Origin: Candidatus Krumholzibacteriia bacterium
GTDB lineage: Bacteria > Krumholzibacteriota > Krumholzibacteriia > LZORAL124-64-63
Direction of reading: 5' to 3'
DNA: 64,000 nt
Assembly: GCA_014859985.1 (NCBI GenBank)
Contig: JACZKN010000092.1
Location: 5,980-69,979 of the forward strand
Made by a program: the position numbers and the translations under genes
The notes under the pieces: generated by a model
What the model saw: the letters and a program-made list of their open reading frames with translations, nothing else
Databases searched by the model: none
What the model was told of the DNA's origin: nothing
Shown here: in pieces, positions 7,222 to 63,504 of the stretch
Layout: every line of letters starts with the position of its first letter
How positions within the stretch are numbered: the first letter of the stretch is position 1

Positions 7222-7953
7222 ATGAAATTGCTAACCGTAGATCAAAACGAGATCGCCACACGGCGGGTGAACGAGGCCATTGAGAAGCGCATAGGCCAGC
7301 TCCGGCTGGACTTGAAAGCCCTGAAGGAAGAGCTGAGTAACCGAGGCCTTCAGCTCGACTCGGGCGTTGCGTATCAGGAGTTCGCTCGACTAGCAGGGAC
7401 CACACTGGATGACCTAATTTGGGGTGCTTGGATGGCCCTACGCGACTTTCTAGGGGAAGTCGATCTCATCGCTCCAACCGGACTCGCCCGCGACGTCCAC
7501 GAGTTTCTTCGCCCGCAGACCGATCAACTTGAGCGTGTCGCCTTGGGGGTCGTCTACGAGAACCTCCACACTCTGAAGGAAGGGAATCCGAAGTACCGTA
7601 ATGAACTCGATCTCGCGCTCAAGAAAGCAATAGGCGATCGCAAACGACAGGTCTGGAACCGCGTCTGTACGGATTCCCGGTTGCTTGAAGAGCGACTAAG
7701 GAAGGAACAGCAAGTAGACGATCGAAGGGAACGACGCGCCGACAGGCGAGCACTCACGACCGCGATCTGGACCGTCGTAGCGACGGTGGTGCTAACAACG
7801 CTTGCCGGCCTTCTATTCAGGCCACGCGGTGAACCGGCTGGAGTCGCTCGACCAGAAAGTATCCAGCAGGTCGAAGTGCTACCAGATACGACATCTGCCG
7901 ATACTGTCGTCCGAGCGCCCTTGGACACAGCGACCGTAGACACGACGCGCTAG
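7222..7953 (+). CDS. coiled-coil protein with C-terminal transmembrane anchor, hypothetical
   Basis: 243 aa; charged helical N-terminal part, TM segment ALTTAIWTVVATVVLTTLAGLLF. Confidence 0.4.
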   Translation: MKLLTVDQNEIATRRVNEAIEKRIGQLRLDLKALKEELSNRGLQLDSGVAYQEFARLAGTTLDDLIWGAWMALRDFLGEVDLIAPTGLARDVHEFLRPQTDQLERVALGVVYENLHTLKEGNPKYRNELDLALKKAIGDRKRQVWNRVCTDSRLLEERLRKEQQVDDRRERRADRRALTTAIWTVVATVVLTTLAGLLFRPRGEPAGVARPESIQQVEVLPDTTSADTVVRAPLDTATVDTTR

Positions 7954-8924: not shown

Positions 8925-9197
8925 CGGGCGGGCACGGGTCCTACTTGCCGATCGTGTCGTAGTTGGGAACGGTGCCGTCCCTGCGATGAACTACGACTCC
9001 ACCGTCGCCCTTCCGTCGGGCGATCTTGTTTGCTGACTGGTCGGCCTCGTGCTGAGGTAGGCGACGGTTTTCCCCCTGGGCTCCATTGTGCTTCCCGCGT
9101 CAACCGACTTTGGGATAAGGCATTACTGGCCGATCGTTGGATCTTTCCGCCATGGTCAGCCCCCTAATCTACAAGTACCTCCCACCGGAAGAGGACA

Positions 9198-14137: not shown

Positions 14138-14148
14138 TATGAAATCCT

Positions 14149-17100: not shown

Positions 17101-17202
17101 AACTTTCTGGGTCGGTTGGCCGTTCTCATCAAGCTCCCAATGACGAATGGGGTAGTCGTATGGAGAATTGAGGATTGGATGCTTGAAGAACTCGTGATCC
17201 AT
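14149..17202 (-). CDS. res: Type III-like restriction endonuclease/helicase subunit (Res)
   Basis: MDHEFFKHPILNSPYDYPIRHWELDENGQPT N-terminus, Walker A LATGAGKT, DEGHH box, C-terminal PD-(D/E)xK-like D...EIKGYRGEDAKEKK. Start moved to internal ATG at 17202 because the track ORF upstream overlaps the HTH gene in another frame. Confidence 0.7.
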   Translation of the reverse strand: MDHEFFKHPILNSPYDYPIRHWELDENGQPTQKVVDRRRPCQLITPIPKPRKHKKKTQQEIVFNEGKGLSTQEQQYDPTPIINAVRREVDRWRALPNSSQWQVTPETARLLQHWRHHKFASFRPFFCQLEAVETAIWLWEVAPKSGKTGRQLVDHLKAANEQANPELLRLALKLATGAGKTTVMAMIIAWQTINAVRRPTSKKFTRGFVVVAPGITIRDRLRVLLPNDPDSYYQSRELVPNDMLADLDRAKIVITNFHSFKLRERLDLSKGGRSLLQGRGEELSTLESEGQMLQRVMPDLMGMKNVLALNDEGHHCYREKQVNDDEGDLKGDDRKEAEKNNEAARVWISGLEAINRKLGLAQVFDLSATPFFLRGSGYAEGTLFPWTMCDFSLMDAIECGIVKLPRVPVADNIPGEEMPKFRNLWEHIGKRMPKKGRGKGKTLDPLSIPVELQTALEALYGHYEKTYELWQKASIKVPPCFIVVCNNTSTSKLVYDYISGFQRENEDGSTTLENGRLELFRNFDDHGNPLGRPRTLLIDSEQLESGDALDKNFRDLASDEIDRFRREIVERTGDLRQAENLTDQDLLREVMNTVGKPDRLGESIRCVVSVSMLTEGWDANTVTHVLGVRAFGTQLLCEQVIGRALRRQSYDLNEENLFNVEYADVLGVPFDFTAKPVVAPPQPPRETVQVKAVRPERDSLEIRFPRVDGYRVELPEERLSAEFNDDSVLVLTPDIVGPSITKNAGIIGEDVDLSLEHLGDMRRSTLLFHVTKRLLYTKWRDPGEEPKLHLFGQLKRITKQWLESCLECKGDTYPALLMYQELADMACERITAGITRSLIGERPIKAVLDPYNPTGSTSFVNFNTSKRDRWQTDSRRCHINWVILDSDWEAEFCRVAEAHPCVRSYVKNHNLGMEVPYRFGSQMRTYIPDFIVLVDDGRGEDDPLHLVVEIKGYRGEDAKEKKSTMDVYWVPGVNNLGTYGRWAFAEFADVYQIGSDFEARVEAEFNRMIDSVTNQTA

Positions 17203-17213
17203 TGGGGGCGTCC

Positions 17214-17435
17214 TTAGGCTTTCTGATTGCGATTCTGACTGAGCCACTTGTCGATCGCAGTTTTGTGGAAACGCCAGTGGCGGCCGATCTTCTGACCGGG
17301 TACGTCCCCCCGGCGCGCCAGGTGATAGAGCGTCGATTTCGGTAGCTTCAGGTATTCGGCCAGCTGGTCGATGGTTAGCACCATATCTCGCGGTTCTTTC
17401 ATCAGTAACACCTCGCCGTGCAAGGCGAAGCGCAT
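17214..17435 (-). CDS. excisionase/AlpA-family HTH DNA-binding protein (possible controller of the R-M operon)
   Basis: LTIDQLAEYLKLPKSTLYHLARRGDVPGQKIGRHWRFHKTAIDKWL; stop 11 nt before Res ATG. Confidence 0.55.
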   Translation of the reverse strand: MRFALHGEVLLMKEPRDMVLTIDQLAEYLKLPKSTLYHLARRGDVPGQKIGRHWRFHKTAIDKWLSQNRNQKA

Positions 17436-17681
17436 TGCACAGTCGGAATGAGTGCAGGAGATAGTAGGCGTCGCTGGCAGTTGCTGTCAATTGTTGTTGG
17501 ATATCAGCCAGCAATGGCCACAGCAAGACGATTAACGCGTTTTACGTCACCGCATTAAGTCAGGAAGATGGAGATAGGGAAGCGCAGACAGAAGGTGATG
17601 GAGGGTCTCCTCTACTCCTCCGGCGCTGCCTCAATCATCTCGGTTGCGGCAGAACGCAGCCCAATCGACTTGGGACACTGC

Positions 17682-19892: not shown

Positions 19893-21401
19893 TCAATGAG
19901 TCGCTGACTCCATTTCCTCGTTCTTCTCTTCCTCATCGCCCTCGGAGTCCTTGGGCTGGTCTTCTGCCGGCTCGTCCGTAGCCACCGTTTCCCCCGAGAT
20001 CGACAGTCCGTACTCCTTGGCTAGCGCCTGCTCCCGGGCCAGTTCGGCGAAGACGTCCTCGATGTCCTCGCCCTTCTCAGCCAGGAACCCGGTCCTTGTC
20101 CCCAGACCGTTCTGGATCGACAGTACGGCGGCCTTGGCTTCCTTCTCGGGATCGATCCACTGCCAGCCACGAGGACGATGGCGGACGGACATGTAGCGGG
20201 AGGGATCGCGAGAGGAGAGCTTCAGGCTGCCCGTTAGCAGCGCCATGCCGAGCCAGGCCGAGTACAGCGGCCGCCGCCACATGTCGATGAAGTCCTGCTG
20301 GATGGAGCGCCAGTCGTCCCGTTCGACCAGCGCGAAGCTGCGCATGGTGGAGTAGCTGACGCCCTCGGCGTCGTTGGCCAGCACGTTGTAGAACACGCTG
20401 AACCCCGAGGCGATCTTCCGGAGCATCTGCTTGATGAACGCCGGGAACTGCGCCGTTGGATGGTCCGGCTCCCAGGCCTTGAACTCGTAGCCATCAGGGA
20501 CAATCTCGAACGTCCCCGGGTTGGCCTCCATGGTGGCAGGCCGTGGATCGCTGGCCAGGTCGCCGGCCAGGGAGTCGGCTCGCTTCTCGAACAGCCCCAT
20601 CTTCGAGGCGCCGATCCGTGCAGCGACGGCCTCCGACTCCTCATAGGCGTTGAGCATGTGCGCCGGGACCATGACCGAGTGGACCCACGTGACGCCTCTG
20701 GTCTGGTTCACGCGATCGGGGTCATAGAGGTGGAGCATCTCCGCAGCCGGGATGAAGTACCGCTCCCGCATCAGGTCAGTACCGACGGAGTCCCAGATCC
20801 AGTAGCCCACCGGTCGCCCGATGGCGTCGATCTCTACGCCCATGCGGATCTCGTTCTGGGAGCCGCGGCGGGGACGGTTGAATGTCTCGTCGATCAGGTC
20901 AGCGTCGATCGCTTGCAAGGCCAGGCCATGGGCATTGCCCTCGAATCCACGCCAGAGGCGGACGAAGGCCTCGCCGTCGCAAGCCACGGTCTTGAGGATC
21001 AGCTTCTCGAAGCGGCGCAACGTGAGCCGGCCGTCGACCGTCACCGGGGCGCTGGCCCAGGCATTCCACGCCTCATCGATGGCGGCGTTGGCCTTCGAGT
21101 CGGGCTGGTCCCCGGCCCAGACCTGGGCCTGGAGCTTGATCCCCATCGGTCCGATGACGTTGGTCACCAGCAGGCGGAAGTAGCGTTTGACGTAGCTGTT
21201 GTTGCGGCCGAGCTCGCGGGCGCGGGCCCGCAGCATGCGGATGTCGCCGCGGACTTCCTCGTCCGCGGACCGGGTCTGGGCGATCCAGTCCAGGAGCAGG
21301 CGGTGGACTCCCGCCCCGTCAAACACGCCGCGCTGACCGCGCAACTCCCGCCAGGCTGAACGAAACGCGCGACCGAGGCGCTTGTGCAGCGGTCGCTTCA
21401 T
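19893..21401 (-). CDS. phage portal protein, lambda (gpB) family
   Basis: ~500 aa; C-terminal region aligns by eye with lambda gpB (G.SY..L..M.S.S..R...W pattern); acidic C-terminal tail. Confidence 0.65.
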   Translation of the reverse strand: MKRPLHKRLGRAFRSAWRELRGQRGVFDGAGVHRLLLDWIAQTRSADEEVRGDIRMLRARARELGRNNSYVKRYFRLLVTNVIGPMGIKLQAQVWAGDQPDSKANAAIDEAWNAWASAPVTVDGRLTLRRFEKLILKTVACDGEAFVRLWRGFEGNAHGLALQAIDADLIDETFNRPRRGSQNEIRMGVEIDAIGRPVGYWIWDSVGTDLMRERYFIPAAEMLHLYDPDRVNQTRGVTWVHSVMVPAHMLNAYEESEAVAARIGASKMGLFEKRADSLAGDLASDPRPATMEANPGTFEIVPDGYEFKAWEPDHPTAQFPAFIKQMLRKIASGFSVFYNVLANDAEGVSYSTMRSFALVERDDWRSIQQDFIDMWRRPLYSAWLGMALLTGSLKLSSRDPSRYMSVRHRPRGWQWIDPEKEAKAAVLSIQNGLGTRTGFLAEKGEDIEDVFAELAREQALAKEYGLSISGETVATDEPAEDQPKDSEGDEEEKNEEMESATH

Positions 21402-40096: not shown

Positions 40097-43000
40097 ATGC
40101 TCGAACGAATGATCGAATTCGGCCTGAAGAACCGCCTGTTGGTGCTCATCATCGCACTGATAGTGATGGGTGCCGGCTATGCCGGCTACACGCGCCTGCC
40201 GGTCGACGCCTTCCCGGACGTCTCGCCCAATCTCGTCCAGGTCTTCACGGTGACCGAGGGCCTCGCGCCCGAGGAGATCGAGAAGTACGTCACCTTCCCC
40301 GTCGAAGCCGCCATGACAGGTCTGCCGGGCACCGCCAAGGTCCGGTCGGTGTCCAACTTCGGATTGTCCGTGGTCAACGTCTACTTCCGCGACGATGTGA
40401 ACATCTACTTCGCCCGGCAGCTCGTCGGCGAACGCCTGCAGGAAGCCCGAGAACAGATCCCCGAAGGATTCGGCGACCCCCAGATGGGCCCGATCTCCAC
40501 CGGCATGGGGCTCGTCCTCTTCTACTACCTGGAGGATACTACCGGCGAGTACTCGCTTGAGGATCTGCGCACGATCCAGGATTGGCTGATCAAGTTCCAC
40601 CTGCAGACCGTGCCCGGGGTCACCGAGGTTCTCGGCATCGGGGGCTTCGAGAAACAGTACCAGATCAGGATCCGACCCGAGCAGCTCCTGCGCTACGACG
40701 TCACCCTGGACGATGTGATCGCTTGCGTGCGCTCCAACAACCTCAACGTCGGCGCGCAGTTCATCGAGAAGAACTCCGAAGAGTTCATCGTCCGTTCCGT
40801 CGGGCTGGCGACCGGCATGGAGGATCTCAGCTCGATCGTCGTCAAGACCGTCGACGGGACCCCCATCTTCCTGTCCGATCTAGCGGAGATCGGATCCGGC
40901 GGCGCGATTCGTCGCGGACTGCAGACCCGCAACGGCACCGGAGAGGTGGTTTCCGGACAGGTGGTCAAGCTCTTCGGCGCCAACTCGTCCACCGTGATCG
41001 GCCGTGTCGAGTCCAAGCTCGAGGAGATCAACAAGATCCTGCCCGATGGGGTACGCATCGTTCCCTACTACGAGCAGAAATCGCTCGTCGAGGCCGCCGT
41101 CAAGACCGTGATCAACGCGCTATTGCAGGGTGTCGTTTTGGTGACGATCGTCCTGCTTGTCTTCATGGGCGGTCTGCGCCCGAGCATCGTGGTCGCCCTC
41201 TCGCTGCCGTTCTCGGTGCTCTTCGCGTTCCTGCTGATGGAACGCTTCGGCGTCTCGGCCAACCTCATGTCGCTCGGCGGCCTGGCGATCGCAATCGGGA
41301 TGATGGTCGACGGTACCATCGTCATGGTGGAGAACATCGACCGCCGGTTGCGGATCGCACCGCCGGACATGACCCGTCTGCGGACCATCTCGCTCGCCTG
41401 CGCGGAGGTCGGCCGTCCCATCCTGTTCGCTATCACCATCATCATTCTCGTCTTCGTGCCCCTGTTCACGCTCCAGGGCGTCGAGGGGAAAACCTTCCGG
41501 CCGCTGGCCTACACCGTGACCATGGCCATGCTGGGATCGCTCATCTTCGCCCTGCTTCTGGCGCCGACCCTGAGCAGCCTCCTGATGCGGGTCCGCCGGC
41601 GCGATGACTCCGACGGTGACGGTGAAGCCCTGGTGGTACGCTGGCTCTTGAAACCGTATCGGCCCGTCGTCCAGTTCTTCGTCCGGCGTAGCTGGGCGGC
41701 CATCGCAATCGCGGTGGTTCTGATGGTGGCCGGCGCAGCGGTGGTTCCTCGCCTCGGTTCGGAGTTCACGCCCAAGCTGCGCGAGGGGACCATCGTCGCC
41801 CGTCTGACGATGGCGCCCTCGATCTCGCTGACCGAGAGCCAGCGGACGGCGCAGATCGTCGAGCGGCGCCTGATGGCGATTCCCGAGGTCCGGGAGGTCG
41901 TTACCCGCATCGGCCGCGGTGAGGTCGGGGCACACACCGATCCCATCAACAGCGCCGAGATGTACGTGATCCTCCGTCCTGAATCCGAGTGGCGCGTCGC
42001 CGGAGGCCAGGAAGCCATCGAGGACGTCATCCGCGACGAGGTCGGCAACGTGCCCGGCGTCCTGGTCAACCTGACCCAGCCCATCGAGATGACGGTGGAT
42101 GAACTCCTGGAGGGCGTCCGCGCCGAGCTCGCCGTGAAGATCTTCGGCGACGATCTCGACGTCCTCAAGGAACGCGCGGCGGAGATCGCGGCCGTCGTCG
42201 GCTCCGTTCCCGGCGCCGCCGACGTCCAGGTCGACCAGGTCAGCGGCGCTCCCCAGCTGCTCCTGCGTATCGACCGGAAGGCGATCGCCCGCTACGGGAT
42301 CAACGTCGACGAGGTCCAGGGAGTCATCCGGGCCGCGGTGGGCGGCGAGGTCGCCGGACAGATCTACGAGGGGATCCGTCGCTTCGACATCCTGGTCCGT
42401 TTCGTCCCCGAGGCTCGCCAGACCGCCGAGAGCATCGGCCACATCCTCATCACCGCCCCGGACGGGGCCCGGGTGCCGCTGGACCAACTGGCCTCCATCG
42501 AGGAGATCGTCGGACCCCGGCAGATCACCCGCGAGGACAACCAGCGGTTCATCTCCGTGCAGTGCAACGTCGTCGATCGCGACATCGGCTCGTTCGTCGC
42601 CGACGCACAGGACGCGATCGATGCCTCGGTCGAACTGCCGCCGGGTTACCTCGTGACCTGGGGCGGACAGTTCCGCCTGCAGCAGGAAGCGAACCGCCGC
42701 TTCGCCGTGGTTATTCCGGCGACGCTGTTGCTGGTCTTCCTCCTGCTGTTCGGCAACTTCGGTTCGATCCGCAACTCCATCCTGATCCTGCTGAACATCC
42801 CGCTGGCCCTGGTCGGCGGCGTGGTCGCGCTGTGGCTGACGGGCCAAAACCTTTCGGTCCCGGCATCAGTAGGCTTCATCGCCCTGTTCGGCATCGCCCT
42901 GGAGAACGGCATGGTGCTGGTGACCTACCTCAACCAGCTGCTGCGCGACGGGCTACCCGTCGCCGAGGCCTCCATCCAGGGCGCGTGCCAGCGCCTGCGC

Positions 43001-43195
43001 CCGGTCCTGATGACCGCGATCACCACGGCGCTCGGTCTGTTTCCGCTGCTCTTCTCGCACGGAACCGGCAGCGAGGTCCAGCGTCCGCTGGCCACCGTTG
43101 TCGTCGGAGGCCTGGTAACATCCACGATTCTCACCCTGCTCGTGATCCCGGCCTTCTACAAGTGGTTTGCGGTCAAGGTTGAGCACGAGGTCTAA
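40097..43195 (+). CDS. czcA: heavy-metal efflux RND permease (CzcA/CusA family)
   Basis: 1032 aa, 12-TM RND architecture, HME-type sequence throughout. Confidence 0.8.
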   Translation: MLERMIEFGLKNRLLVLIIALIVMGAGYAGYTRLPVDAFPDVSPNLVQVFTVTEGLAPEEIEKYVTFPVEAAMTGLPGTAKVRSVSNFGLSVVNVYFRDDVNIYFARQLVGERLQEAREQIPEGFGDPQMGPISTGMGLVLFYYLEDTTGEYSLEDLRTIQDWLIKFHLQTVPGVTEVLGIGGFEKQYQIRIRPEQLLRYDVTLDDVIACVRSNNLNVGAQFIEKNSEEFIVRSVGLATGMEDLSSIVVKTVDGTPIFLSDLAEIGSGGAIRRGLQTRNGTGEVVSGQVVKLFGANSSTVIGRVESKLEEINKILPDGVRIVPYYEQKSLVEAAVKTVINALLQGVVLVTIVLLVFMGGLRPSIVVALSLPFSVLFAFLLMERFGVSANLMSLGGLAIAIGMMVDGTIVMVENIDRRLRIAPPDMTRLRTISLACAEVGRPILFAITIIILVFVPLFTLQGVEGKTFRPLAYTVTMAMLGSLIFALLLAPTLSSLLMRVRRRDDSDGDGEALVVRWLLKPYRPVVQFFVRRSWAAIAIAVVLMVAGAAVVPRLGSEFTPKLREGTIVARLTMAPSISLTESQRTAQIVERRLMAIPEVREVVTRIGRGEVGAHTDPINSAEMYVILRPESEWRVAGGQEAIEDVIRDEVGNVPGVLVNLTQPIEMTVDELLEGVRAELAVKIFGDDLDVLKERAAEIAAVVGSVPGAADVQVDQVSGAPQLLLRIDRKAIARYGINVDEVQGVIRAAVGGEVAGQIYEGIRRFDILVRFVPEARQTAESIGHILITAPDGARVPLDQLASIEEIVGPRQITREDNQRFISVQCNVVDRDIGSFVADAQDAIDASVELPPGYLVTWGGQFRLQQEANRRFAVVIPATLLLVFLLLFGNFGSIRNSILILLNIPLALVGGVVALWLTGQNLSVPASVGFIALFGIALENGMVLVTYLNQLLRDGLPVAEASIQGACQRLRPVLMTAITTALGLFPLLFSHGTGSEVQRPLATVVVGGLVTSTILTLLVIPAFYKWFAVKVEHEV

Positions 43196-43214
43196 GCCAT
43201 GAAGGAGAGCAGTC

Positions 43215-43553
43215 ATGAAGGAGATCAAAGCCTACATCCAGACGCACAAGCTGGCGGACGTCACCTCGGCGCTCCATCGCATCGAGGGGGTGACGGGGAT
43301 GAGCATCGTGGACTGCCGCGGCTTTGGTGCGGGCTGGGCCGGCACGGAACACGCGTCCGACTCCGAAACGTTCAGCTATCGAAAAGGCGTGAAGATCGAG
43401 GTATTCTGCCGGGATGACCTCGCCGCGGACATCATGGCAGCAATCGAGCAGGCGGCACACACCGGTTTGAAGGGGGATGGGAAGATTTACGTCGCGGACA
43501 TTTCGCACGCGGTTCGTATCAGCACCGGCGAGACCGGTGAAGCTGCCGTGTGA
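43215..43553 (+). CDS. P-II (GlnB)-like small regulatory protein associated with metal efflux operons
   Basis: MKEIKAYIQTHKLADVTSALHRIEGVTGMSIVDCRGFG, PII-like fold signature. Confidence 0.55.
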   Translation: MKEIKAYIQTHKLADVTSALHRIEGVTGMSIVDCRGFGAGWAGTEHASDSETFSYRKGVKIEVFCRDDLAADIMAAIEQAAHTGLKGDGKIYVADISHAVRISTGETGEAAV

Positions 43554-43583
43554 GACCGTCCGCGACGAGAAAGGGCCGCCACC

Positions 43584-44489
43584 ATGGGACACGGACATTC
43601 GCATCACCCGGACCCTGAACAGACCGGAGACCGTCGACTGCTTGCCGCCATCGTTGTCAACGTCCTGCTGACCGGCGCTCAGGTGGTCGGCGGGGTCATC
43701 TCGGGCAGCCTGTCCCTGGTGGCGGACGCCTTGCACAACCTGAACGACGCCGCGTCTCTTGGTATCGCCCTGATTGCGCGTCGAATTGCGCGTCGGCCGG
43801 CAGACAAGGTTCGCACCTTCGGCTACCGGAAAGCCGAGGTGATCGGTGCCCTGATCAACACGACGACGCTGATCATTGTCGGCCTTTACCTCGTCTATGA
43901 AGCGGTCGCCCGCTTCCTGCAGCCCGAGCCCATCGACGGGTGGATCGTTGTCATCGTCGCGAGCTTCGCTCTTGTCGTGGATCTCGCCACTGCCCTGATG
44001 ACCTTCTCGATGGCCAAAGAGAACATCAACATCAAGGCCGCCTTCGTCCACAACGTCGCGGACGCCCTCGGATCGCTCGTCGTCATCTGCGTCGGCATCG
44101 TGGTCCTGGCGTTTCAATGGTACGTCGCCGATCTCATCGCGACCCTCCTCCTGGCCGGCTACATCCTGTTTCAGGGATATCGGCTGATGGCGGAGTCGGT
44201 CCGCATCCTGATGGACAGCGTCCCGGCCGACCTGGATCGCGATGGCATCGCAGCCCGGATGGCGGCCGTTCCCGGGGTCCACGACGTGCATCATGTCCAC
44301 ATCTGGCAGATCGATGAGCACCACCGCGCGCTCGAGGCCCACATCGTTGCCCAGGCAGGTCCCGAGGATGCCGAGGCGATCAAGCGAGCGCTGAAGGAAC
44401 TGCTTCGCCAGGAATTCGCGATCGCTCACACCACTCTCGAGTTTGAGTCGCGTGGGGTATGCGACAACGAAAGTGGACCATGCGCCTGA
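43584..44489 (+). CDS. czcD: cation diffusion facilitator (CzcD-like)
   Basis: N-terminal His-rich MGHGHSHHPD, six TM, CDF signature SLVADALHNLNDA. Confidence 0.75.
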   Translation: MGHGHSHHPDPEQTGDRRLLAAIVVNVLLTGAQVVGGVISGSLSLVADALHNLNDAASLGIALIARRIARRPADKVRTFGYRKAEVIGALINTTTLIIVGLYLVYEAVARFLQPEPIDGWIVVIVASFALVVDLATALMTFSMAKENINIKAAFVHNVADALGSLVVICVGIVVLAFQWYVADLIATLLLAGYILFQGYRLMAESVRILMDSVPADLDRDGIAARMAAVPGVHDVHHVHIWQIDEHHRALEAHIVAQAGPEDAEAIKRALKELLRQEFAIAHTTLEFESRGVCDNESGPCA

Positions 44490-47373: not shown

Positions 47374-47937
47374 GTGGCCAGGGGAGCAAAGAAGGAGCTG
47401 ATCTCGCAGCGCGAGTACGCCCGCAGGCGCGGCTTGACCCACGTCGCGGTTCAGCGTGCCGTGAAGGCAGGCCGGATCTCGACCGTGAATGGGAAGATCG
47501 ACCCTGCGCTCGCCGACCAGCAGTGGCAGGAGAACACCGACCAGAGCAAGCCCCGCAATCGGATCACCGGTAACCCCAAGCAGACCAAGGCACCAGGTGA
47601 ACCATCTGAACCCATGGACATGGGCGGAGCCGATGAAATCGTCGGAGGCTCGTCGACGGCCACCGGATATGCCAAGGCCCGCGCCGCTCGCGAGCTCTAC
47701 CAGGCGCAGCTGGCGAAGCTCGAGTTGGACCGCAAGCGCGGCACCCTCGTGCGCGCCGACGAGGTGCGTCTCGGCGCATTCAACATGGCCCGCAAGGCCC
47801 GCGATCAGTTGATCGCCTTGCCCGAGCGCCTGGCCTCCGTCCTAGCTGCTACAGAGGAGCCCGCCGAGGTCCAGCGCATCCTCGAGGAAGAGATCGAGCG
47901 GATCTGCCAGGAGATCGCGGATGCAGAACGGCCGTGA
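47374..47937 (+). CDS. terminase small subunit
   Basis: HTH ISQREYARRRGLTHVAVQRAVKAGRI; precedes TerL. Confidence 0.55.
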   Translation: MARGAKKELISQREYARRRGLTHVAVQRAVKAGRISTVNGKIDPALADQQWQENTDQSKPRNRITGNPKQTKAPGEPSEPMDMGGADEIVGGSSTATGYAKARAARELYQAQLAKLELDRKRGTLVRADEVRLGAFNMARKARDQLIALPERLASVLAATEEPAEVQRILEEEIERICQEIADAERP

Positions 47938-49771
47938 CACGTATGAGACCGCCTACCGGGCGGGCTGGCGGCCGGAGCCGCGGCTGACGGTCAGCGAGTG
48001 GGCCGACGAGCACCGCGTGCTGGGCAACCGCTCGGGCCATGCCGCGGTGCACTGGCACACCGACACGACGCCGTACCTGCGCGAGATCATGGACGCTCTG
48101 GGCCCACGGTCTCCGGCCCGCCGGGTCGTGTTCATGAAGGGTTCGCAGCTTGGCGGCACCGAGGCGGGCAACAACTGGCTCGGGTACGTGATGCACCACG
48201 CGCCCGGGCCGATCCTCGTCTTGCGCCCCACCGTGGACGAGGCCCGGCGGTTCAGCCGGCAGCGCCTCGATCCCATGATCGCCACCACGCCCGTGCTCCA
48301 CGAGCTGGTCCGCGAGGCGCGGTCCCGCGACGGCGGCAACAGCCTCCTGATCAAGGAGTTCCCCGGCGGGGTCCTATTCCTGACCGGCTCGAACTCCGCG
48401 ACCGGCGTCAAGTCGATGCCGATCCGCTGGCTCTTCTGCGACGAGATCGACGAGTACCCAGGCGATGTCGACGGGCAGGGCGACCCGATCTCGCTAGCTG
48501 AGAAGCGCACCACCGGCCCCCTCTACTCGCGCCGCAAGGTGTTCCTGGTCTCGACGCCCACGGTCAAGGGCATCTCACGGATCGAGCGGGAGTTCCTCGC
48601 GTCGGACCAGCGGCGGTACTTCGTCCCCTGCCCCGAGTGCGGCCACTTCGACTGGATGCGGTGGGAGAACATCCGATGGCGTGACGACGACCCCAAGACC
48701 GCCGCCATGGCCTGCGTCCACTGCGGCGTCCTGATCGAGGAGCGCTTCAAGCCCCAGATGCTCAATCAGGGGCAATGGCGCCCCACCGCGAAGGGCAACG
48801 GCGAGACGATCGGGTTCCATCTGTCCAGCCTCTACTCGCCGCTGGGCTGGCTGCCATGGTCGGCCACCGTCGCTGAATTCGTGGAGTCCAAAGAGAACCC
48901 ACTCCGGCTGAAGAACTGGGTCAACAGCGTGTTGGGCGAGACCTGGGAAGAACGCGGCGAGACCGTCGACCCGGACAGTCTGCTGGCCCGGGCGGAGCGG
49001 TACGAGGCCGAGGTGTCCACTGGCGTGGGTGTGCTCGTGGCCGCGGTCGACGTGCAGGGTGACCGCCTCGAGTGCGCCGTGAAGGGGTACGGCGCCGCTG
49101 AGGAGTCCTGGCTTGTCGCCTTCTCCCAGTTCCACGGCGATCCGGGGCGCGACCAGGTCTGGCTCGACCTCGACCGCTTCTTGCGAACCGAGTTTGCCCA
49201 CGAGAGCGGCCAGAAGGTCCCGATCTCCTGCGTCGCCGTCGACAGCGGCGGTCATCACTCCGAGCAGGTCTACCGGTTCTGCCGCGCCCGGATCGACCGG
49301 CGAGTGTTCGCCGTTCGTGGTGGCTCCGAACGGGGCAAGCCGCTCGTGGGCCGCCCGTCCGATCACAACCGCTACCGGGCGAAGCTGTTCACCCTCTGCG
49401 TCGACACCGGCAAAGAGATCGTCTACTCGCGGCTGCGCATCGGGTCACCCGGACCCGGCTACTGCCACCTGCCCGAGTGGATCGACGAGGAGTACATCGC
49501 CCAGCTTACCGCCGAGAAGGCCATCCGCAAATGGATCAAGAACCGCGGCACGGTGCGCGAGTGGGTCAAGACCCGCGATCGCAACGAGGCCCTCGACCTC
49601 GAGGTCTACTGCCTGGCCGCCCTCCACATCCTGGGACCCGCCTTCGTGAAGTCCTTGCCCGAGCGCGCAGCGGCCCTGGCCAATCTGCGCGAGGTGCCTG
49701 TCGCGGCCGAGCCGGAGCCGAGCATGCCTTTGCGGCGCCCCCGGGGGTGGATCGATGGCTGGCGAGGGTAG
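47921..49771 (+). CDS. terminase large subunit, lambda gpA family
   Basis: 616 aa; GpA-type N-terminal ATPase (LTVSEWADEHRVL...TPYLREIMDAL) and C-terminal nuclease. Confidence 0.7.
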   Translation: MQNGRDTYETAYRAGWRPEPRLTVSEWADEHRVLGNRSGHAAVHWHTDTTPYLREIMDALGPRSPARRVVFMKGSQLGGTEAGNNWLGYVMHHAPGPILVLRPTVDEARRFSRQRLDPMIATTPVLHELVREARSRDGGNSLLIKEFPGGVLFLTGSNSATGVKSMPIRWLFCDEIDEYPGDVDGQGDPISLAEKRTTGPLYSRRKVFLVSTPTVKGISRIEREFLASDQRRYFVPCPECGHFDWMRWENIRWRDDDPKTAAMACVHCGVLIEERFKPQMLNQGQWRPTAKGNGETIGFHLSSLYSPLGWLPWSATVAEFVESKENPLRLKNWVNSVLGETWEERGETVDPDSLLARAERYEAEVSTGVGVLVAAVDVQGDRLECAVKGYGAAEESWLVAFSQFHGDPGRDQVWLDLDRFLRTEFAHESGQKVPISCVAVDSGGHHSEQVYRFCRARIDRRVFAVRGGSERGKPLVGRPSDHNRYRAKLFTLCVDTGKEIVYSRLRIGSPGPGYCHLPEWIDEEYIAQLTAEKAIRKWIKNRGTVREWVKTRDRNEALDLEVYCLAALHILGPAFVKSLPERAAALANLREVPVAAEPEPSMPLRRPRGWIDGWRG

Positions 49772-51022: not shown

Positions 51023-51283
51023 ATGGCCAAGACCACCAAGAAGACCACCCGGGCCCGCAAGCCCGCCGCCGAGAAGCCGGCCGCCGAGGCCAAGACCAAG
51101 GCCCCGCGCGAAGAGCTCTGCGTGTTCGCGTTCCGGCTGACCGAGGCCGAGCGCGACGCCATCCACAAGGCCGCCGGGCCGGCGAAGGCCTCGAAGTTTG
51201 CACGCAGCCTGCTGGTGGCCGCCGCGACGAAGGACGAGGCGGCGGTTCGGGCGATCATGAAGGAGGTCGTATCCGAAGCCTAG
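51023..51283 (+). CDS. small ribbon-helix-helix-like DNA-binding protein
   Basis: Basic N-tail then CVFAFRLTEAERDAIHKAA strand-helix pattern. Confidence 0.35.
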   Translation: MAKTTKKTTRARKPAAEKPAAEAKTKAPREELCVFAFRLTEAERDAIHKAAGPAKASKFARSLLVAAATKDEAAVRAIMKEVVSEA

Positions 51284-51311
51284 CTCGCTGGAACCCGTTC
51301 TGAACCGACGA

Positions 51312-51331
51312 CCTCTCGGCGAGCCGAGGGG
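51312..51331. terminator. hairpin CCTCTCGGC-GA-GCCGAGGGG between convergent gene sets (bidirectional terminator candidate)
   Basis: 9-bp stem with one mismatch, followed by TCTTCGG. Confidence 0.4.
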
Positions 51332-51341
51332 TCTTCGGCAT

Positions 51342-51659
51342 TCATGTCGACTCCTCCGCCGACTTGCCCCCACTCTCATGCTCCCCGTTCACGAGCGCAC
51401 GGATCTGCCCGAGGATCGCTGCCTCAAACTGCCCGGCAGTCTCACGATCGATCGGGTGATGCAGCGGGTGAGGTCGGCCATTGGTCGCGAGCTTTCGCGG
51501 GTAGGTCAGGAACAGGTGGCCGGTCGGGTCGCGGCGGATGGCGATGTCATTGAGCAGGACGCCGCCGTAGCGGCAGGAGGCGAAGGCGACCAGGCCGCTG
51601 GTAGCGTCGGGGGCCAGGCGGATCCGGACTTCGGCGATCAAGTTCTCGGCGCTCTTCAT
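51342..51659 (-). CDS. spoVG: SpoVG-family nucleic-acid-binding protein
   Basis: EVRIRL..LVAFASCRYGGVLLNDIAIRRDPTGHLFLTYPRK....HPLHHPIDRETAGQFEAAIL matches the SpoVG pattern (DVRLR..AFASIT.D..FVVHDIRVIEG.NGLFVAMPSR...HPIN..TR..I). Confidence 0.65.
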   Translation of the reverse strand: MKSAENLIAEVRIRLAPDATSGLVAFASCRYGGVLLNDIAIRRDPTGHLFLTYPRKLATNGRPHPLHHPIDRETAGQFEAAILGQIRALVNGEHESGGKSAEEST

Positions 51660-51842
51660 GACGTGACGACCTCCGGGTCAGTGACCTGAATGAGCGGATC
51701 CTCGGATTGGCTGCGTCGGTCCCGCCAGGCTCGGGCCCGGCATGCGTCCGAACAGAACCTCTTCGGTTGTCCGCGTCGCGTGTTCTGGGGTTCGAACTCC
51801 CGCCCGCACAGGCCGCAGAACGAAATCAGAGGCCCCGGCATT
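51656..51842 (-). CDS. small zinc-ribbon protein (CGLCG...FCSDACRARAWRDRR)
   Basis: Internal ATG at 51842; the longer track ORF runs through the iteron repeats and is unlikely to be coding. Confidence 0.4.
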
Positions 51843-52023
51843 CCGTTCGTTTCGGTTTCAGGTGCCTGGATACCTCCTGGCCTCTCCGCTTCGCTCAGAG
51901 CGCCTCCTGGACAGCCGTCCTCGTGCAGCGACTGTACCGCCAGAGAATCGCCGCCGGCGTGGCCGGAACTACCTTCACCCCGCCTATACGCGCGCACGCT
52001 GAAAACGGGGGGTATTTCCGTGA

Positions 52024-52195
52024 GGGGGGAAGATGGGGAAGGAAGGGAAGGAAGTAGAAGAGAGTGTGTCTTATAACGAGTTACATACCGAGCATTCTTC
52101 ACCTTCGTTCACCTTCCTTCACCCCGAAATCGACCTTCGAAGAGGCTTCCTTCACCTTCGTTCACCTTTCTTCACTGCTTCCTTCACCCTTCCCC
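52024..52195. repeat. iteron-like repeat field: (GGAAG)n tract then >=7 copies of TTCAC(C/T) in two 27-bp units TTCACCTTCGTTCACCTT(C/T)CTTCAC; candidate phage replication origin
   Basis: Read directly; located at the 3' end/downstream of the primase gene. Confidence 0.55.
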
Positions 52196-54379
52196 CTTCG
52201 CCGAGCCTGACGATGATCCAGCCAGACGGTAGATCCGACCTGTCCGGCCGGAAGTCGCCTGTACCTGGACGACGATGTCGCCTCGCTGCTCGAGCGTGGT
52301 CACCAGACCGGAGAAGCTCTTGGCGTCGGTCTTCATCCGCTTCAGCAACACGCCATGGGGCAGCGCCCGGTCCGGAGCGGCACGCAGCTTCTGAAGGAAC
52401 CGCAGGCACTCGGCATGGAACGGATTGTCCGCGACATGGGATTGGGCCATGAACAACATCCGCTTGGTCTGGTGCAGGATGAGGCGGCTGGCCCAGGACG
52501 CGGCCGTCTTGCCGATCTCGGGTCGCTCGTGGTTCTCGCTCACGGCGTAGATCAGCGCGAGTTTGCGGGCGTGCTCGCTGACTCTGCCCCAGACGGTCGT
52601 CCCTACGCTGTCGTCGGCCGCCTCCGCCCTGGCATACTCAGCCTCGGCTTCGAGCCTGGTCTCGACCAGGACGTCCGTCGCCTCGTCGGTGTGCGGAACG
52701 ACACGCGGCACGGGATGCCAGTTCTCGAGGTTTCCGGTGCCGGCCCTGAAGTCCGCCCACCACTGCGCCGTCTCGAGCACGCGCTCCGGCATCGGAAGCA
52801 GCCGCGGTTCCCGCCCGGTCGAGCGGCTGCCGCACTCCAGAACGATCATCCGGGCGAAGAATCCGTTCGTCAGCATCCGCTCCGACAGCGCCTCGTAGTA
52901 GTGGTTCGGTATCGCCGTGCCGAAGACCACCAAGCAGGGCTGGTCGATGGCCCCAGGCGCGTCTCGGCCTGCCTTGCGGCGCATCGGGAAGATCGAGTTG
53001 GCCGACGAGTACATGGTCAGGAGCGTTTCCATGATGCTCTCGTACCGGGCGTCGCGCGCCTTGTTGATCGACTGGAGCATGCCGTCGATCTCGTCGGTCT
53101 GGAAAAGCATGGCCGGCTCGGTGAACAGCGCATCCTGCAGGCCCTCGCCCGAGGCGAACCGCCCGCCGATCTGACCGGACATGCCGAGCGTGTGCAGGAT
53201 CTCGGCGTTGATCTTGCGCGGGCGGTCCTTACCCGCAGACGAGTGGGCAAGGCCGAGGATGTAGACGTTCGTCCTGTTGTCGCCGGGGTCACGCACCTTG
53301 CGCCCTGCGAGCGTGGCCAGCAGCGCCAGCGCGCCGGCGAAGGCCATGGAGCTGTTCGGATACGGAGCCGTCTCCAGGCAGTAGTCCATGACCTCGGAGA
53401 CGAAGCCGGGGATACGGAGGAGTTCGACCGGCAGCGGGCCGGGATCTGGCATCTCGGGCACGCTATCCTCGGGCTCGGTCGCCCCGGGATTGTCCTGCCG
53501 CCAGTGGTCTTCCACCACGGCGACGGCGACCTGGTCGGGCTCGTACCGGGCGATGCTGGTCGCGATCCGCTGGACCTCCCGGTCCTTCAGCGGCGGGCTG
53601 CAGCGGTCGAGATTGGCCCGGACCAGGGCGGCCAGGATCTCCTCCTGGCTCATCCCCACCCGGCGCATGGCCCCGCCCAGTCGCGCCAGCGTGGCGTTCC
53701 GGTGCCCGGCTGGTATATCGTTGCCACCGGCGGCCGCCGGTGCGCACGGGGGCGCCGCGGGCGCGCCCTGGGCCGCAACCGGCCGTTCCTCAGCGGGCCC
53801 GCCTGGCTCCTTGGCAAAGAGGTCCGCGCCACCTTCGACCCGGGATCCAAGCCACGCGGGGGCTTTGGGCTGATCGGCCAGTCCCACCTCGAGCGCCCGG
53901 ACCCACTGATACGGCTTGCCGCCCACCACCGAGGGCGGCAGGACGATGTAGCCGCCGTTGGCCCTGGTGTCGACTTTCGGAGCGAGCCGACCGGCGGTGC
54001 TGCTCCAGCTCTTGCCCGCCGGCTGCCGGAAGATGTAGTGCCGGCCGCCGCGAGGCGTCATGGAGAGCGGGCAGTCCCCGAGGCCTTCCAGGTCGTCGCC
54101 GGGCCACGGATTGTCCGCCCCGTCGACGTCCACGACCAAGAGGCCGGCGGTCGGCATGCCGATGTTCGCATCCGGTCGAGCCGTCCACCAGGCCTCGATC
54201 TGGCCGGCGTCCGTGGTGGCGTCAAGGAACCCGTGCGGCGTCGCGGGGGCCTTCCCGCCCGGCACGCACGGAAAGACCGGGTACCCGAGTTCCGCATACC
54301 TCAACGCTGCCTGCAGTAATGTCGTCCCGGTCTCGGTCATAGACACCCGATCGCGGTCAGAAGGGTAGGTCATCGTCAT
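52184..54379 (-). CDS. bifunctional DNA primase/polymerase (PrimPol domain) with large C-terminal region
   Basis: LGYPVFPCVPGGKAPATPHGFLDATTD...LVVDVD prim-pol N-terminal signature. Confidence 0.65.
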   Translation of the reverse strand: MTMTYPSDRDRVSMTETGTTLLQAALRYAELGYPVFPCVPGGKAPATPHGFLDATTDAGQIEAWWTARPDANIGMPTAGLLVVDVDGADNPWPGDDLEGLGDCPLSMTPRGGRHYIFRQPAGKSWSSTAGRLAPKVDTRANGGYIVLPPSVVGGKPYQWVRALEVGLADQPKAPAWLGSRVEGGADLFAKEPGGPAEERPVAAQGAPAAPPCAPAAAGGNDIPAGHRNATLARLGGAMRRVGMSQEEILAALVRANLDRCSPPLKDREVQRIATSIARYEPDQVAVAVVEDHWRQDNPGATEPEDSVPEMPDPGPLPVELLRIPGFVSEVMDYCLETAPYPNSSMAFAGALALLATLAGRKVRDPGDNRTNVYILGLAHSSAGKDRPRKINAEILHTLGMSGQIGGRFASGEGLQDALFTEPAMLFQTDEIDGMLQSINKARDARYESIMETLLTMYSSANSIFPMRRKAGRDAPGAIDQPCLVVFGTAIPNHYYEALSERMLTNGFFARMIVLECGSRSTGREPRLLPMPERVLETAQWWADFRAGTGNLENWHPVPRVVPHTDEATDVLVETRLEAEAEYARAEAADDSVGTTVWGRVSEHARKLALIYAVSENHERPEIGKTAASWASRLILHQTKRMLFMAQSHVADNPFHAECLRFLQKLRAAPDRALPHGVLLKRMKTDAKSFSGLVTTLEQRGDIVVQVQATSGRTGRIYRLAGSSSGSAKGEG

Positions 54380-60695: not shown

Positions 60696-62729
60696 TCAAA
60701 TTATCCACTCCACTCGCTCGCGCGGCTCATAGCACGGCTTCCAGCCGCAGTTTAGCGTCGGACGCGTCAGGTGTTCTGCGAGTCGCTTGTCGTACTTCCC
60801 GATCTCGGTGCGGGTGCGGCGAATGGCTGCCAGCACCGCCTTCCGGACCCGATCTCGGTCATCGGATTGTTTTCGTAGTCGCCCATGGAGCCCCTGGTCC
60901 CGCTTGATGTGCTCCATCAGGTCTTCCATCTCGACTCGAATTTGCTCCTCGGCATCCGAATCCTGCCGCTCCGCGGCGTCCTCCGACTGGTCTCTGAGCT
61001 GCTCGTAGCGAGCACGATAGGCCGCCATCGCCTGTTCGTCCGAGCCCTCGCCCGCGTCCCCGAGTAGGTATTCCTGCGATCTCCGTGCGACTCGCGCAGC
61101 GAGGTCCTCAACCGATATGCCTGTCCCTTGATTCTCTAGAAGCACATGTATGTAGGCGGCACCTTTACTTGGCAGCAGGATGAACTCCTGCCCACCTGCG
61201 TACCGCACCTCCCATACCTGGCCTTTCCTTCGGAAGGTGAATTCGGGGCACTCCTTGTCGCTCGCAGCTGCCCCCCCAGCACCTGCACCGGCCTCGCTTC
61301 CAGCCGCTCCCGAATCGCACACTAAGCGAAGCAAGCAAGACGCGGGCAGGGTTCGTTCTCGAATCTCCTTCGCATGCTTCGCGATCGCGCTGTCCACAAC
61401 GCTTGTGACCTGCTGTGCATGCTTCCTGTACAACTCATAGATCTTCACAGCGGTCGCGTCGGCCGAACCGTCGATGTGTCGTAACACGCGACTGATCTCC
61501 CCGAAGCGCGAGAAGAAGTCCAGTGGAACCATCCGCCCAACATCGTTCGCAGTTTCCACGTAGGAGCCCAGAAGTGTGCGCGTCTCGTCTTCGTCTCGAC
61601 CATCGACCAACAGCTTGACCTTGTATCCTTCCTCCGGATCTAGTGCTTCGGCACCTGCCGCGAGCACAGCAAAGCGACGGTCGATGCACTGGGAACACGC
61701 TCCGCAGTGTGGATGCAGGTTTGTCATCTCCCAGGTGTGAGTACAACTCGTCGAGAACCGGATCATATCTCCACAGCCAGCGGAGACTATCCCTCCGACG
61801 ACTTCCGCCTTGGTCTTCCATAGAAACGGATTCTCGACATCGAACCTTCGATCAGCCACCAGCGAGAGGATCTCTGCGTATCCGTTCATCACCTGCGGAT
61901 GCGTGGTTCTTGTCGCTCTTGCCCCTACAATTTGGGCCGATGGCGGGAAGTTGAAACTGATGACCCCGTTCTCATAGAATCGAATCCGAGCAAGCCCCAG
62001 CATCTGCGCAACGGTAGCGCCGAGGGCCATGTACAAGAACGACCGACTTCGCTGCGTGTACTCCCTGCCAAGCACCTTGCTCTTGTTGATGGTCACAGGG
62101 ACGAACATCGGGTCCAATGCGGACCGCTCAGTTAGCTCCCTGGTGAGCTTCCTGTATCGCCGAACGAGTTTCTTGCTTGGCTGGTGGGTGATAAGAGCGA
62201 TTCGACGTTTGTCTACCACGCCCTCCTGAACCGCACCGCCCAGTGAATCGAGTCCTCCTGAGAAGAGTACGACCTCCTCGACCCGATCGGGTCCGTCGTT
62301 CTGCCCGGTGAAGAGGTACTCCTGGACCGGCGGACCATCGGTCAGTTTCATGAATTCGAACTCGTATTCGTCTTCGGAGAGGAAACCCAGCGTGGTTAGA
62401 AGTGCCGTCCTGACCTTCTTACTGGACCACAGGTCCGGTTCTCGAACCGGAATCCTGAAGAACAGCCGCCGCCGCCAATCTGCACCAAGGTTGTTCACGC
62501 CGTCACCGCCCCGAGTGACAGCCTGATCTGCGCAGTACACGTAGGTGGCGATCTCCAAGAGATCCACGAAGGCAGATGGAACATTGTCCATCATGGCCTT
62601 GCTGATCGCGCCAATCTCGAGCTTTACGTTCGCATGTCGACCCCAGAGGCGGAGGCGCAGCGGTTTCCCAGCAACCGGGAGTGCCTTATCGGAGACGCTA
62701 CCGCAGATGATGGCTCTCTCATTTGCCAT
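60696..62729 (-). CDS. multidomain QueC-like PP-loop ATPase (N-terminal unknown domain, QueC-like core, Ala/Gly linker, C-terminal wHTH-like plus acidic coiled-coil)
   Basis: VLFSGGLDS PP-loop; SCTHTW...HPHCGACSQCIDRR aligns with the QueC zinc site TCYNG...GCGECPAC; start could be 62756 or 62729 (MANER). Confidence 0.6.
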   Translation of the reverse strand: MANERAIICGSVSDKALPVAGKPLRLRLWGRHANVKLEIGAISKAMMDNVPSAFVDLLEIATYVYCADQAVTRGGDGVNNLGADWRRRLFFRIPVREPDLWSSKKVRTALLTTLGFLSEDEYEFEFMKLTDGPPVQEYLFTGQNDGPDRVEEVVLFSGGLDSLGGAVQEGVVDKRRIALITHQPSKKLVRRYRKLTRELTERSALDPMFVPVTINKSKVLGREYTQRSRSFLYMALGATVAQMLGLARIRFYENGVISFNFPPSAQIVGARATRTTHPQVMNGYAEILSLVADRRFDVENPFLWKTKAEVVGGIVSAGCGDMIRFSTSCTHTWEMTNLHPHCGACSQCIDRRFAVLAAGAEALDPEEGYKVKLLVDGRDEDETRTLLGSYVETANDVGRMVPLDFFSRFGEISRVLRHIDGSADATAVKIYELYRKHAQQVTSVVDSAIAKHAKEIRERTLPASCLLRLVCDSGAAGSEAGAGAGGAAASDKECPEFTFRRKGQVWEVRYAGGQEFILLPSKGAAYIHVLLENQGTGISVEDLAARVARRSQEYLLGDAGEGSDEQAMAAYRARYEQLRDQSEDAAERQDSDAEEQIRVEMEDLMEHIKRDQGLHGRLRKQSDDRDRVRKAVLAAIRRTRTEIGKYDKRLAEHLTRPTLNCGWKPCYEPRERVEWII

Positions 62730-63504
62730 CGGGCCGCGCCCCCTCTTTGAGTTCATCGGAGAGCTTCTTCATCGCGACGTGCGCGAACCCAGATGCATCC
62801 TTCCGCGAGATCCCTTTCTTTTCCCAGTTGGTCTTCGAGAACCAGCCGCCGGAAAAGTCTTCGACGATCTTAGATGCTTCCTGGCAATGGCGTCCGAGCG
62901 CTTTCGAGAATCCGGCTTGCTGAGCCAGGGTTGCGAAGCGCCTGTCTTCGCCAACATGGAGGGTCATTGCTCGACTGAGGAAGTAGTCGAGGTACCTCTC
63001 AGTCAGGCGTGCGAAGAATTGGCGGGCGAAGACGCTGAACTGGCGGTTGGTCCCCAACTGCCGAAGCTCACGCTGAACATCGGCTGCGGTCGTTCCGAAG
63101 AGGCTCTGAGTCCTCTCACCGAGTACCCGGGTCAGCGTCTCGGTCGCAGACATCTCTGCCATTTCACCGAGGTCCGTACGACCACCGTTCTTAGAGAGAC
63201 GACGGTCCACCGCATCGGCGAAAGCACCGACCAGCTCCATTAAAGTCGGGGCATCGCGGACGTCGATCCCCGCCGCACGGAGTGATCCGGCGTAGTCATC
63301 TGATCGCGCCGCGAGTGGAAGCTGGGTCAGGAGCCAGATCGTCTCAACCAGGCCTTTATCGTCACTGGCGAGTTTCAGACCTCGCTCGGCCGCCGAGATT
63401 GTGGCGTTGGCGACCTGCGCGGTGCCTGCGCCTCCTTCGATAAGCCCAACAACCTGCTGCCACCGTCTCGTGCGCGGAAGCTCACCGAGGCGCAAGTGCC
63501 CCAT
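62719..63504 (-). CDS. hypothetical partner protein beginning Met-Gly, coupled to the QueC-like gene
   Basis: GAGG SD 7 nt before ATG at 63504; overlaps downstream gene by 11-38 nt. Confidence 0.5.
   Translation of the reverse strand: MGHLRLGELPRTRRWQQVVGLIEGGAGTAQVANATISAAERGLKLASDDKGLVETIWLLTQLPLAARSDDYAGSLRAAGIDVRDAPTLMELVGAFADAVDRRLSKNGGRTDLGEMAEMSATETLTRVLGERTQSLFGTTAADVQRELRQLGTNRQFSVFARQFFARLTERYLDYFLSRAMTLHVGEDRRFATLAQQAGFSKALGRHCQEASKIVEDFSGGWFSKTNWEKKGISRKDASGFAHVAMKKLSDELKEGARPDGK

Follow-up and report, generated by a model that had tools for sequence, protein, structure and literature searches.

What does a SpoVG-like protein do at the end of the replication operon of a prophage-like element? 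The question is raised by a stretch of 64,000 nucleotides of contig JACZKN010000092.1 from a Candidatus Krumholzibacteriia bacterium, here called the window, in which two short minus-strand open reading frames (ORFs) follow a primase gene and an origin-like array of iterons (Table 1). ORF B encodes a zinc ribbon and ORF A, the last gene of the operon, encodes the 105-aa protein that concerns us here. An earlier note on this DNA had described ORF A as a clear SpoVG-family protein and a prophage-encoded copy of a cellular regulator, had proposed that it serves host regulatory takeover or replication control, and had pointed to the adjacent iterons as a DNA target. On the strength of profile and structure comparisons, the 105-aa ORF is predicted to be a divergent member of the SpoVG fold or superfamily that is not orthologous to the cellular septation regulator, and we tentatively favor the view that it acts as a dispensable, small nucleic-acid-binding accessory of element replication.

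The window protein was searched with the PF04026 hidden Markov model (HMM), which aligned over the whole domain (residues 8-84 on positions 3-78 of 82; E=3.7e-4) at 21.0 bits, below the Pfam gathering score of 29.6 bits. The NCBIfam equivalog for the septation regulator SpoVG (NF009749) returned 18.2 bits against a cut-off of 108 bits. The complete lack of a PF04026 hit, which the earlier note had named as grounds for dropping its claim, was therefore not what we found, and a divergent SpoVG-fold homologue is what remains of the claim once the word "clear" is removed. A phmmer search of the Protein Data Bank matched the window protein to B. subtilis SpoVG (2ia9, E=0.002), and its identity to the solved SpoVGs is about 20%; PHROGs held no family for it. 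The evidence becomes stronger at the level of the family. The 119 clusters of homologues share 63-96% identity, most of them with precomputed PF04026 matches, and the Pfam model matches 36 of 36 aligned clade members over their full length at E<=0.01 (best 3.1e-7). A profile of the clade finds all three solved SpoVG structures (2ia9, 2i9x and 2i9z), aligning its positions 11-96 with residues 3-87 of 2ia9 at E=1.4e-5. An exhaustive profile search returned 588 representative clusters at E<=1e-3, of which the tight clade accounts for only one or two, and distant relatives among them exceed the Pfam cut-off (39.9 bits for P0130 and 36.5 bits for P0140), linking the clade to the SpoVG family through intermediates. 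The AlphaFold2 model of the protein (pLDDT, the predicted local distance difference test, 73) has four strands and a C-terminal helix.

Kept as well are the residues on which nucleic-acid binding by canonical SpoVG depends. P54-R55-K56 and P69 are invariant in the 36 aligned sequences and H68 is conserved in at least 90% of them. The basic doublet that is essential for DNA binding in SpoVG of S. aureus (K50-R51) and B. burgdorferi (R53-R54) (PMC3688583) aligns with the invariant R55-K56, and Pro63 of the B. subtilis protein (PMC3362512) aligns with the invariant P69. Homology to the SpoVG fold is supported by the profiles of the family, by its conserved DNA-binding residues and by the top fold matches. 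With the canonical SpoVGs of B. subtilis, S. aureus, L. monocytogenes and B. burgdorferi the window protein shares a length of about 100 aa, the same predicted order of four strands, hairpin and C-terminal helix, a full-length profile alignment, the basic doublet of the hairpin (PRK here, aligned with PSKR of 2ia9 and 2i9x) and the His-Pro before the helix, and nucleic-acid binding would be expected of it as well. Apart from the low identity, it differs from them at the start of the C-terminal helix. In canonical SpoVG the first helix residues set sequence specificity and are hypervariable, whereas in the clade this segment is nearly invariant (D71, T74, A75 and F78). Canonical spoVG genes, moreover, have a chromosomal context, whereas those of the clade lie in the replication modules of phages and integrative elements.

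The tight clade has so far been found in phages and integrative elements of metagenome-assembled genomes labelled Eisenbacteria, Krumholzibacteria and relatives. The close homologues examined are all in mobile-element contexts and none is in a chromosomal spoVG-like context, which, together with the distance from the solved SpoVGs, speaks against a prophage copy of a host spoVG. A survey of phages, as the earlier note had recommended, was carried out on 50,697 GenBank phage records; a canonical SpoVG query found 38 of them, and tblastn searches with the window protein and with the ribbon found none. The podoviruses of C. perfringens (phiCP7R, phiZP2, phiCPV4, CPS2 and the CPQ series), lytic phages of Firmicutes, are small, phi29-like and replicate by protein priming. 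They and gut phage contigs likewise encode SpoVG-family proteins of about 100 aa (PMC3362512, PMC10294663), and phiCP7R supplies the protein that ranks second among the BFVD fold matches of the window protein; the podoviral proteins differ in giving no tblastn match to it and in missing the conserved Pro (PMC3362512). SpoVG-like genes in phages have been reported already; what the window adds is a new and very divergent one, from a host lineage that had not been studied.

In the window, the leftward early operon encodes, in order, a DUF3799 exonuclease, a Sak4/AAA_24 annealase, DUF669, RusA, a DEAD helicase and a PrimPol-PriCT_1-DUF3987 primase (Prim-Pol, E=4e-40; PriCT_1, 5e-16; DUF3987, 6e-10; phrog_3022, 2e-65), and is continued in the same direction by the origin-like iterons, the zinc ribbon and the SpoVG-like gene. 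The location of the pair just downstream of primase and iterons, as described in the earlier note, was confirmed, and the order primase, iterons, ribbon, SpoVG-like gene is common to the near-identical phages L001-L006, L012-L015 and L019 and to L020. In about 20 further loci, the end of a DUF3987 helicase gene is overlapped by the SpoVG-like gene, which is followed by a small helical protein (60-99 aa) and then a large serine recombinase, with the host divIC-eno adjoining; these serine-recombinase cassettes are without the zinc ribbon. Their ORFs are intact down to about 57% identity, for which reason the cassettes look functional, and no late genes were seen in these compact units of about 6 kb. 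Neither a large serine recombinase nor a homologue of this small helical protein is present in the window. An MCM-like helicase precedes the SpoVG-like gene in L038-L041, archaeo-eukaryotic primases (AEPs) precede it in L016 and L018, and a DnaB-like helicase precedes it in L046, the proteins of L038-L041 and L046 being distant relatives (about 40% identity, or found by profile search only). Across the clade and these relatives, the SpoVG-like gene thus stands directly after replicases of five types (PrimPol-DUF3987, DUF3987, MCM-like, AEP and DnaB-like). Between loci the SpoVG-like proteins are 53-94% identical, while the adjacent replicases are 23-30% identical or undetectably related.

Some further features of these loci were recorded. 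The cassettes (L007-L011 and L021-L037; for example, L007 5250-10441) have the layout 339-aa protein, DUF3987 helicase, SpoVG-like protein, 60-99-aa protein, large serine recombinase, and the 60-99-aa helical protein carries a LAxLLAxAYLRLL-type motif. L016 has two SpoVG-like paralogues (3336-3824 and 5992-6279), one of which has a 68-aa N-terminal extension and directly follows the primase, and L018 (5959-6566) has a degenerate 96-aa tandem SpoVG-like copy that lacks the hairpin and has no Pfam match. In L045 (6001-7209), the 402-aa protein P0154 combines a helicase-like region of 300 aa with a SpoVG domain at its C terminus (PF04026, 39.5 bits). It was considered as Rosetta-stone evidence and set aside; its N-terminal part matches neither of the DUF3987 proteins tested, and its neighbors are fragmented.

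The iterons beside the pair have origin-like properties. Exact matches to GTGAASRAA number six in the 64-kb window, in which 1.1 would be expected and none of 100 shuffles reached six, and all of them are within 52104-52187. The stop codon of the primase is overlapped by the last unit of the array. The block 51961-52200 is 90-97% identical in L020, compared with 60% in the adjacent variable stretch 51931-51960. With seven direct repeats spaced at about a helical turn, an AT-richer flank and the gene of a probable initiator next to it, 52017-52187 is predicted to be an origin-like block. The core of the iterons, GTTCACC/CTTCACC, resembles the TGTTCACC type I repeats bound by the alpha protein of phage P4. 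The iteron origins of Cch2 in the staphylococcal cassette chromosome (SCC) and of SaPI Rep similarly consist of short direct repeats at helical spacing beside an AT-richer stretch, placed directly after the gene of the primase-helicase (PMC7581432). In a scan of L001-L037 the motif occurred only with a window-type primase and in 0 of about 20 other loci with a 60-87% identical SpoVG-like gene; nothing convincing came from searching the sequence upstream of four recombinase cassettes for iteron-like repeats of other kinds. Because the iterons co-occur with the window-type primase, this primase/helicase is the probable iteron-binding initiator, as judged from sequence, and because the motif tracks the primase and not the SpoVG-like gene, the iterons are an unlikely target of the SpoVG-like protein.

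The partner of the SpoVG-like protein carries four cysteines with the spacing and F-C-S signature of an FCS-type zinc ribbon (C9-x2-C12 and F29-C30-S31-x2-C34) and is predicted to bind zinc. Its Pfam matches (E 0.015-0.05) are all below the cut-offs (zf-FCS, 15.5 against 22.4 bits; zf-FCS_1, 14.9 against 26.6; zf-FLZ, 13.5 against 23.4), and its best PHROG match is phrog_2308 (E=3.8e-7). The motif C-x2-C...F-C-S-x2-C-R is shared with FCS/TRASH-type fingers (zf-FCS PF06467, zf-FCS_1 PF21319, zf-FLZ; PHROGs 2308, 16925, 15471, 1271 and 8643), a module that also forms part of phage HNH endonucleases and of a primase/polymerase family, whereas the 61-aa window version is free-standing. Homologues of the ribbon form 10 clusters with 54-90% identity, of which the eight intact ones (P0120-P0128) keep all four Cys and share an RRGxPK(R/K)FCSDACRARAWR core; that of L020 has an in-frame insertion of 18 nt (6 codons). 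The ribbon is often missed by automatic callers and is uncalled in L001-L006. In L038-L041 the order of the two genes is swapped, the SpoVG-like gene coming before the ribbon, next to the same convergent 86-aa gene as in the window. This recurrence in swapped order indicates that the partnership is real, though lineage-limited.

How might the SpoVG-like protein act in replication? Of the two roles suggested in the earlier note, replication control is the better half, as the gene follows five unrelated types of replicase, while host regulatory takeover has no positive evidence and the protein is not a captured host copy. By analogy with characterized mobile elements, the protein would be a cofactor for single-stranded DNA (ssDNA), RNA or structured DNA that works alongside a self-loading primase-helicase. 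Its contacts with nucleic acid would be made by the basic R55-K56 hairpin together with the conserved first part of the C-terminal helix, and the target would be a feature common to all of these elements or their hosts and not element-specific iterons. The iterons, in turn, would most likely be read by the primase-helicase, as SCC Cch2 does with repeats beside its own gene (PMC7581432), and the zinc ribbon would be a lineage-specific partner, making the pair helpful and not essential. Canonical SpoVG is known to bind ssDNA and RNA besides double-stranded DNA (dsDNA) (PMC11086051). In SCCmec operons, a helicase and small proteins that bind ssDNA or act as primase cofactors are encoded beside serine recombinases, and the helicase gene is directly followed by the origin (PMC7581432). 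The LP1413 (with Cch) and MP (with CCPol and Cch2) systems of SCCmec thus resemble the loci described here in having a primase/helicase operon with a small co-transcribed protein followed by one or more serine recombinases (PMC7581432); the likeness is one of layout only, LP1413 and MP being unrelated to each other and the window phage having no serine recombinase. As a portable cofactor, and being more conserved than the replicases, the SpoVG-like protein would contact a shared component of the host replisome or a generic DNA or RNA structure. That the SpoVG fold has been recruited as such a cofactor, exchanged between phages and SCC-like cassettes and serving at least five unrelated helicase/primase types, is a possibility about which we are more doubtful than about the accessory role itself.

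Several observations weigh against a replication accessory. L042 and L043, which belong to the same genus as the window phage (primase 76% and TerL 89% identical), are without the SpoVG-like gene, and their ribbon is disrupted twice: 261-aa and 78-aa membrane/lipoprotein-like genes occupy the ribbon/SpoVG slot (L042 5990-7960, and alike in L043), a direct repeat of 140 nt from the ribbon 5' end lies on either side of these genes, and neither ribbon copy is complete. It follows that the pair is dispensable, which suits an accessory or moron gene as well as a cofactor. P0154, the sole helicase-SpoVG fusion, comes from a frameshift-prone assembly and may be an artefact rather than a true fusion. 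Finally, in other temperate phages late-gene regulators, Ltr and RinA for instance, occupy this same position after the early genes (PMC13123087), so adjacency to a replicase could be positional and not functional.

This last point keeps a developmental regulator, which would switch on late genes or tune lysis-lysogeny or excision at the transcriptional or post-transcriptional level, a serious rival of the accessory role, although we consider it rather doubtful. The canonical SpoVGs are site-specific DNA- and RNA-binding regulators (PMC3688583, PMC4959528), the last gene of the early module is where Ltr and RinA are typically found (PMC13123087), and a near-invariant specificity helix would fit one shared operator or RNA target. 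The position of the gene just 5' of the small helical protein and the serine recombinase at about 20 loci makes control of integration or excision conceivable. Yet repeat-based checks, the only ones made for this purpose, gave no shared non-coding motif near the gene across loci, the window gene is convergent with the packaging operon and not upstream of it, and its vicinity yielded no sigma-70-like promoter. That compact cassettes without visible late genes, where there is nothing obvious to regulate, retain the gene is what leads us to favor the accessory role over a late-gene regulator. A direct role at the origin, with the SpoVG-like protein, alone or with the ribbon, recognizing the GTGAA(G/C)GAA iterons and helping to open the origin, is very unlikely. 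The gene adjoins the iteron array and the SpoVG family can bind specific dsDNA, but the iterons are missing from the many loci that have a closely related SpoVG-like gene with the same specificity helix, and self-loading helicases of mobile genetic elements themselves bind iterons adjoining their own genes (PMC7581432). L038-L041, in addition, keep the pair with an MCM replicase, and their upstream sequence has no obvious array when inspected by eye, without a GTGAASRAA scan. The ribbon, which co-occurs with the iterons in 13 loci, would be a better candidate for an origin binder than the SpoVG-like protein.

Two further readings place the protein outside replication. It has been proposed that phages use spoVG genes of their own to interfere with sporulation or host regulation (PMC10294663), and high conservation across different replicases could reflect a conserved host target; a mimic of this kind would compete with or replace host SpoVG and reprogram host physiology. 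The divergence from solved SpoVGs, the failure of the equivalog model and the confinement of the close homologues examined to mobile-element contexts make such a mimic quite improbable. That the gene is instead a moron apart from replication, using a SpoVG-like fold in, for example, anti-defense or superinfection exclusion, is unlikely, if slightly less so than a host mimic. The slot is variable, as the membrane/lipoprotein-like genes of L042 and L043 demonstrate, whereas strong conservation and a fixed post-replicase position across very different elements would be unusual for morons, and PADLOC gave no match for either small protein.

Both small ORFs of the gene pair are judged from their homologue clusters (119 for the SpoVG-like protein and 10 for the ribbon) to be real genes and not chance ORFs. 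The SpoVG-like product begins with MKSAENLIAEVRIRL, and its gene has a GC3 of 0.84, typical for coding regions here (window GC content, 63.5%). As the earlier note had it, the two genes are coupled, and they lie on the minus strand exactly at the coordinates given there: the stop codon of the ribbon overlaps the start codon of the SpoVG-like gene in ATGA, with GGAGGT 9 nt 5' of the latter start, so the SpoVG-like gene is translationally coupled to the preceding ribbon gene. A 148-aa, GTG-started version of the ribbon ORF in the mechanical ORF list was rejected as an over-extension, its upstream part covering the iteron block. This extension has 9/9/9 substitutions by codon position relative to L020, a non-coding pattern, and of the upstream sequence only the 10-nt leader AACGAACGGA is conserved (identical in the window, L020, L038, L041 and L042; farther upstream the distant loci are unrelated), from which the true start is taken to be the ATG at 51841. 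The corresponding counts for the ribbon itself, 5/4/7, are too few to decide alone. Between the SpoVG-like gene and the convergent 86-aa gene lies a GC-rich hairpin that is a candidate bidirectional terminator; a scan for consensus terminators did not report it, the only terminator-like site that it gave being elsewhere, at 51101-51116 inside the 86-aa gene. Around the pair a scan for sigma-70 promoters detected none, and an Rfam search over 49-54 kb found no RNA family, with one sub-threshold microRNA chance match. The 86-aa gene (51023-51283, plus strand; CVFAFRLTEAERDAIHKAAG...ASKF) looks ribbon-helix-helix/MobC-like by eye, had no match in Pfam, PHROG or NCBIfam, and is always convergent with the SpoVG-like/ribbon pair, including in the MCM-type phage (L041 1056-1337).

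Table 1. Coordinates of the gene pair, the origin-like block and the flanking putative defense genes in the window
Feature	Position	Strand	Remarks
SpoVG-like ORF (ORF A)	51342..51659	-	105 aa, last gene of leftward early/replication operon
FCS-type four-cysteine zinc-ribbon ORF (ORF B)	51656..51841	-	61 aa, MPGPLISFCGLCG...FCSDACRARAWR
Conserved 10-nt leader AACGAACGGA	51842..51851	-	Abuts ribbon ATG (51841)
GC-rich hairpin	51301..51344		Between convergent SpoVG-like gene and 86-aa gene; -23.7 kcal/mol, z=-2.4, no U tract
PrimPol-PriCT_1-DUF3987 primase/helicase	52184..54379	-	731 aa
Iteron array	52094..52187	-	Seven GTGAA(G/C)(G/A)A(A/T) units, two clusters, 10-12 nt spacing
Inverted CTTCC/GGAAG tract	52017-52059		Inverted repeats I1, I2, I4, I5, I7, I8
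AT-richer spacer	52060-52093		Between inverted tract and iterons
TIR-domain protein	7950-8924		Flank
GajB/UvrD-like helicase	9198-11279		Flank
Type III methyltransferase	11276-14137		Flank; PADLOC MTase_III, 1390 bits
ResIII-type enzyme	14149-17526		Flank

The surrounding region is prophage-like, and the phage early module of the earlier note is borne out. A block at 18-60 kb has a GC content of 62-68%, compared with 57-61% in the flanks, and encodes a holin, a GH108 lysin, a lambda-type portal, a protease-capsid fusion, a tape measure protein, a ParB-methylase, TerS and a GpA-type TerL. The window phage is remote from cultured phages, to which its TerL is at most 48% identical. No integrase and no tRNA gene were found anywhere in the window. 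The order of modules is unusual: a distance of 26 kb separates the portal (19893-21401, minus strand) from the terminase genes (47374-49771, plus strand), which are on the other strand. Between the tail and packaging genes, at 40097-44489, lie a 1032-aa phrog_7301 protein and a cation-efflux gene (43584-44489). L001 shares part of this arrangement, its genes for packaging, an ion transporter and a tail fibre following one another in the same order. Just outside the high-GC block, a 686-aa protein (60696-62756, minus strand) has a weak QueC-like segment (E ~1e-5), and the lower-GC flank at 7950-17526 looks like a defense island.

At present the result is one of annotation and a modest extension of what is known; a literature search did not turn up a link between SpoVG and replication modules. 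It also flags, in the poorly known phyla Eisenbacteria and Krumholzibacteria, compact primase-helicase/SpoVG-like/serine-recombinase cassettes whose layout resembles the replicative ccr complexes of SCCmec. SpoVG is widespread and pleiotropic, and whether it works as a DNA-binding or an RNA-binding factor is debated. Because the mobile-element clade keeps the binding residues, is fixed beside replicases and is more conserved than they are, it offers a simpler setting for what the SpoVG fold does with nucleic acid. If the portable-cofactor reading is true, it would give the SpoVG family its first defined biochemical role in DNA replication.

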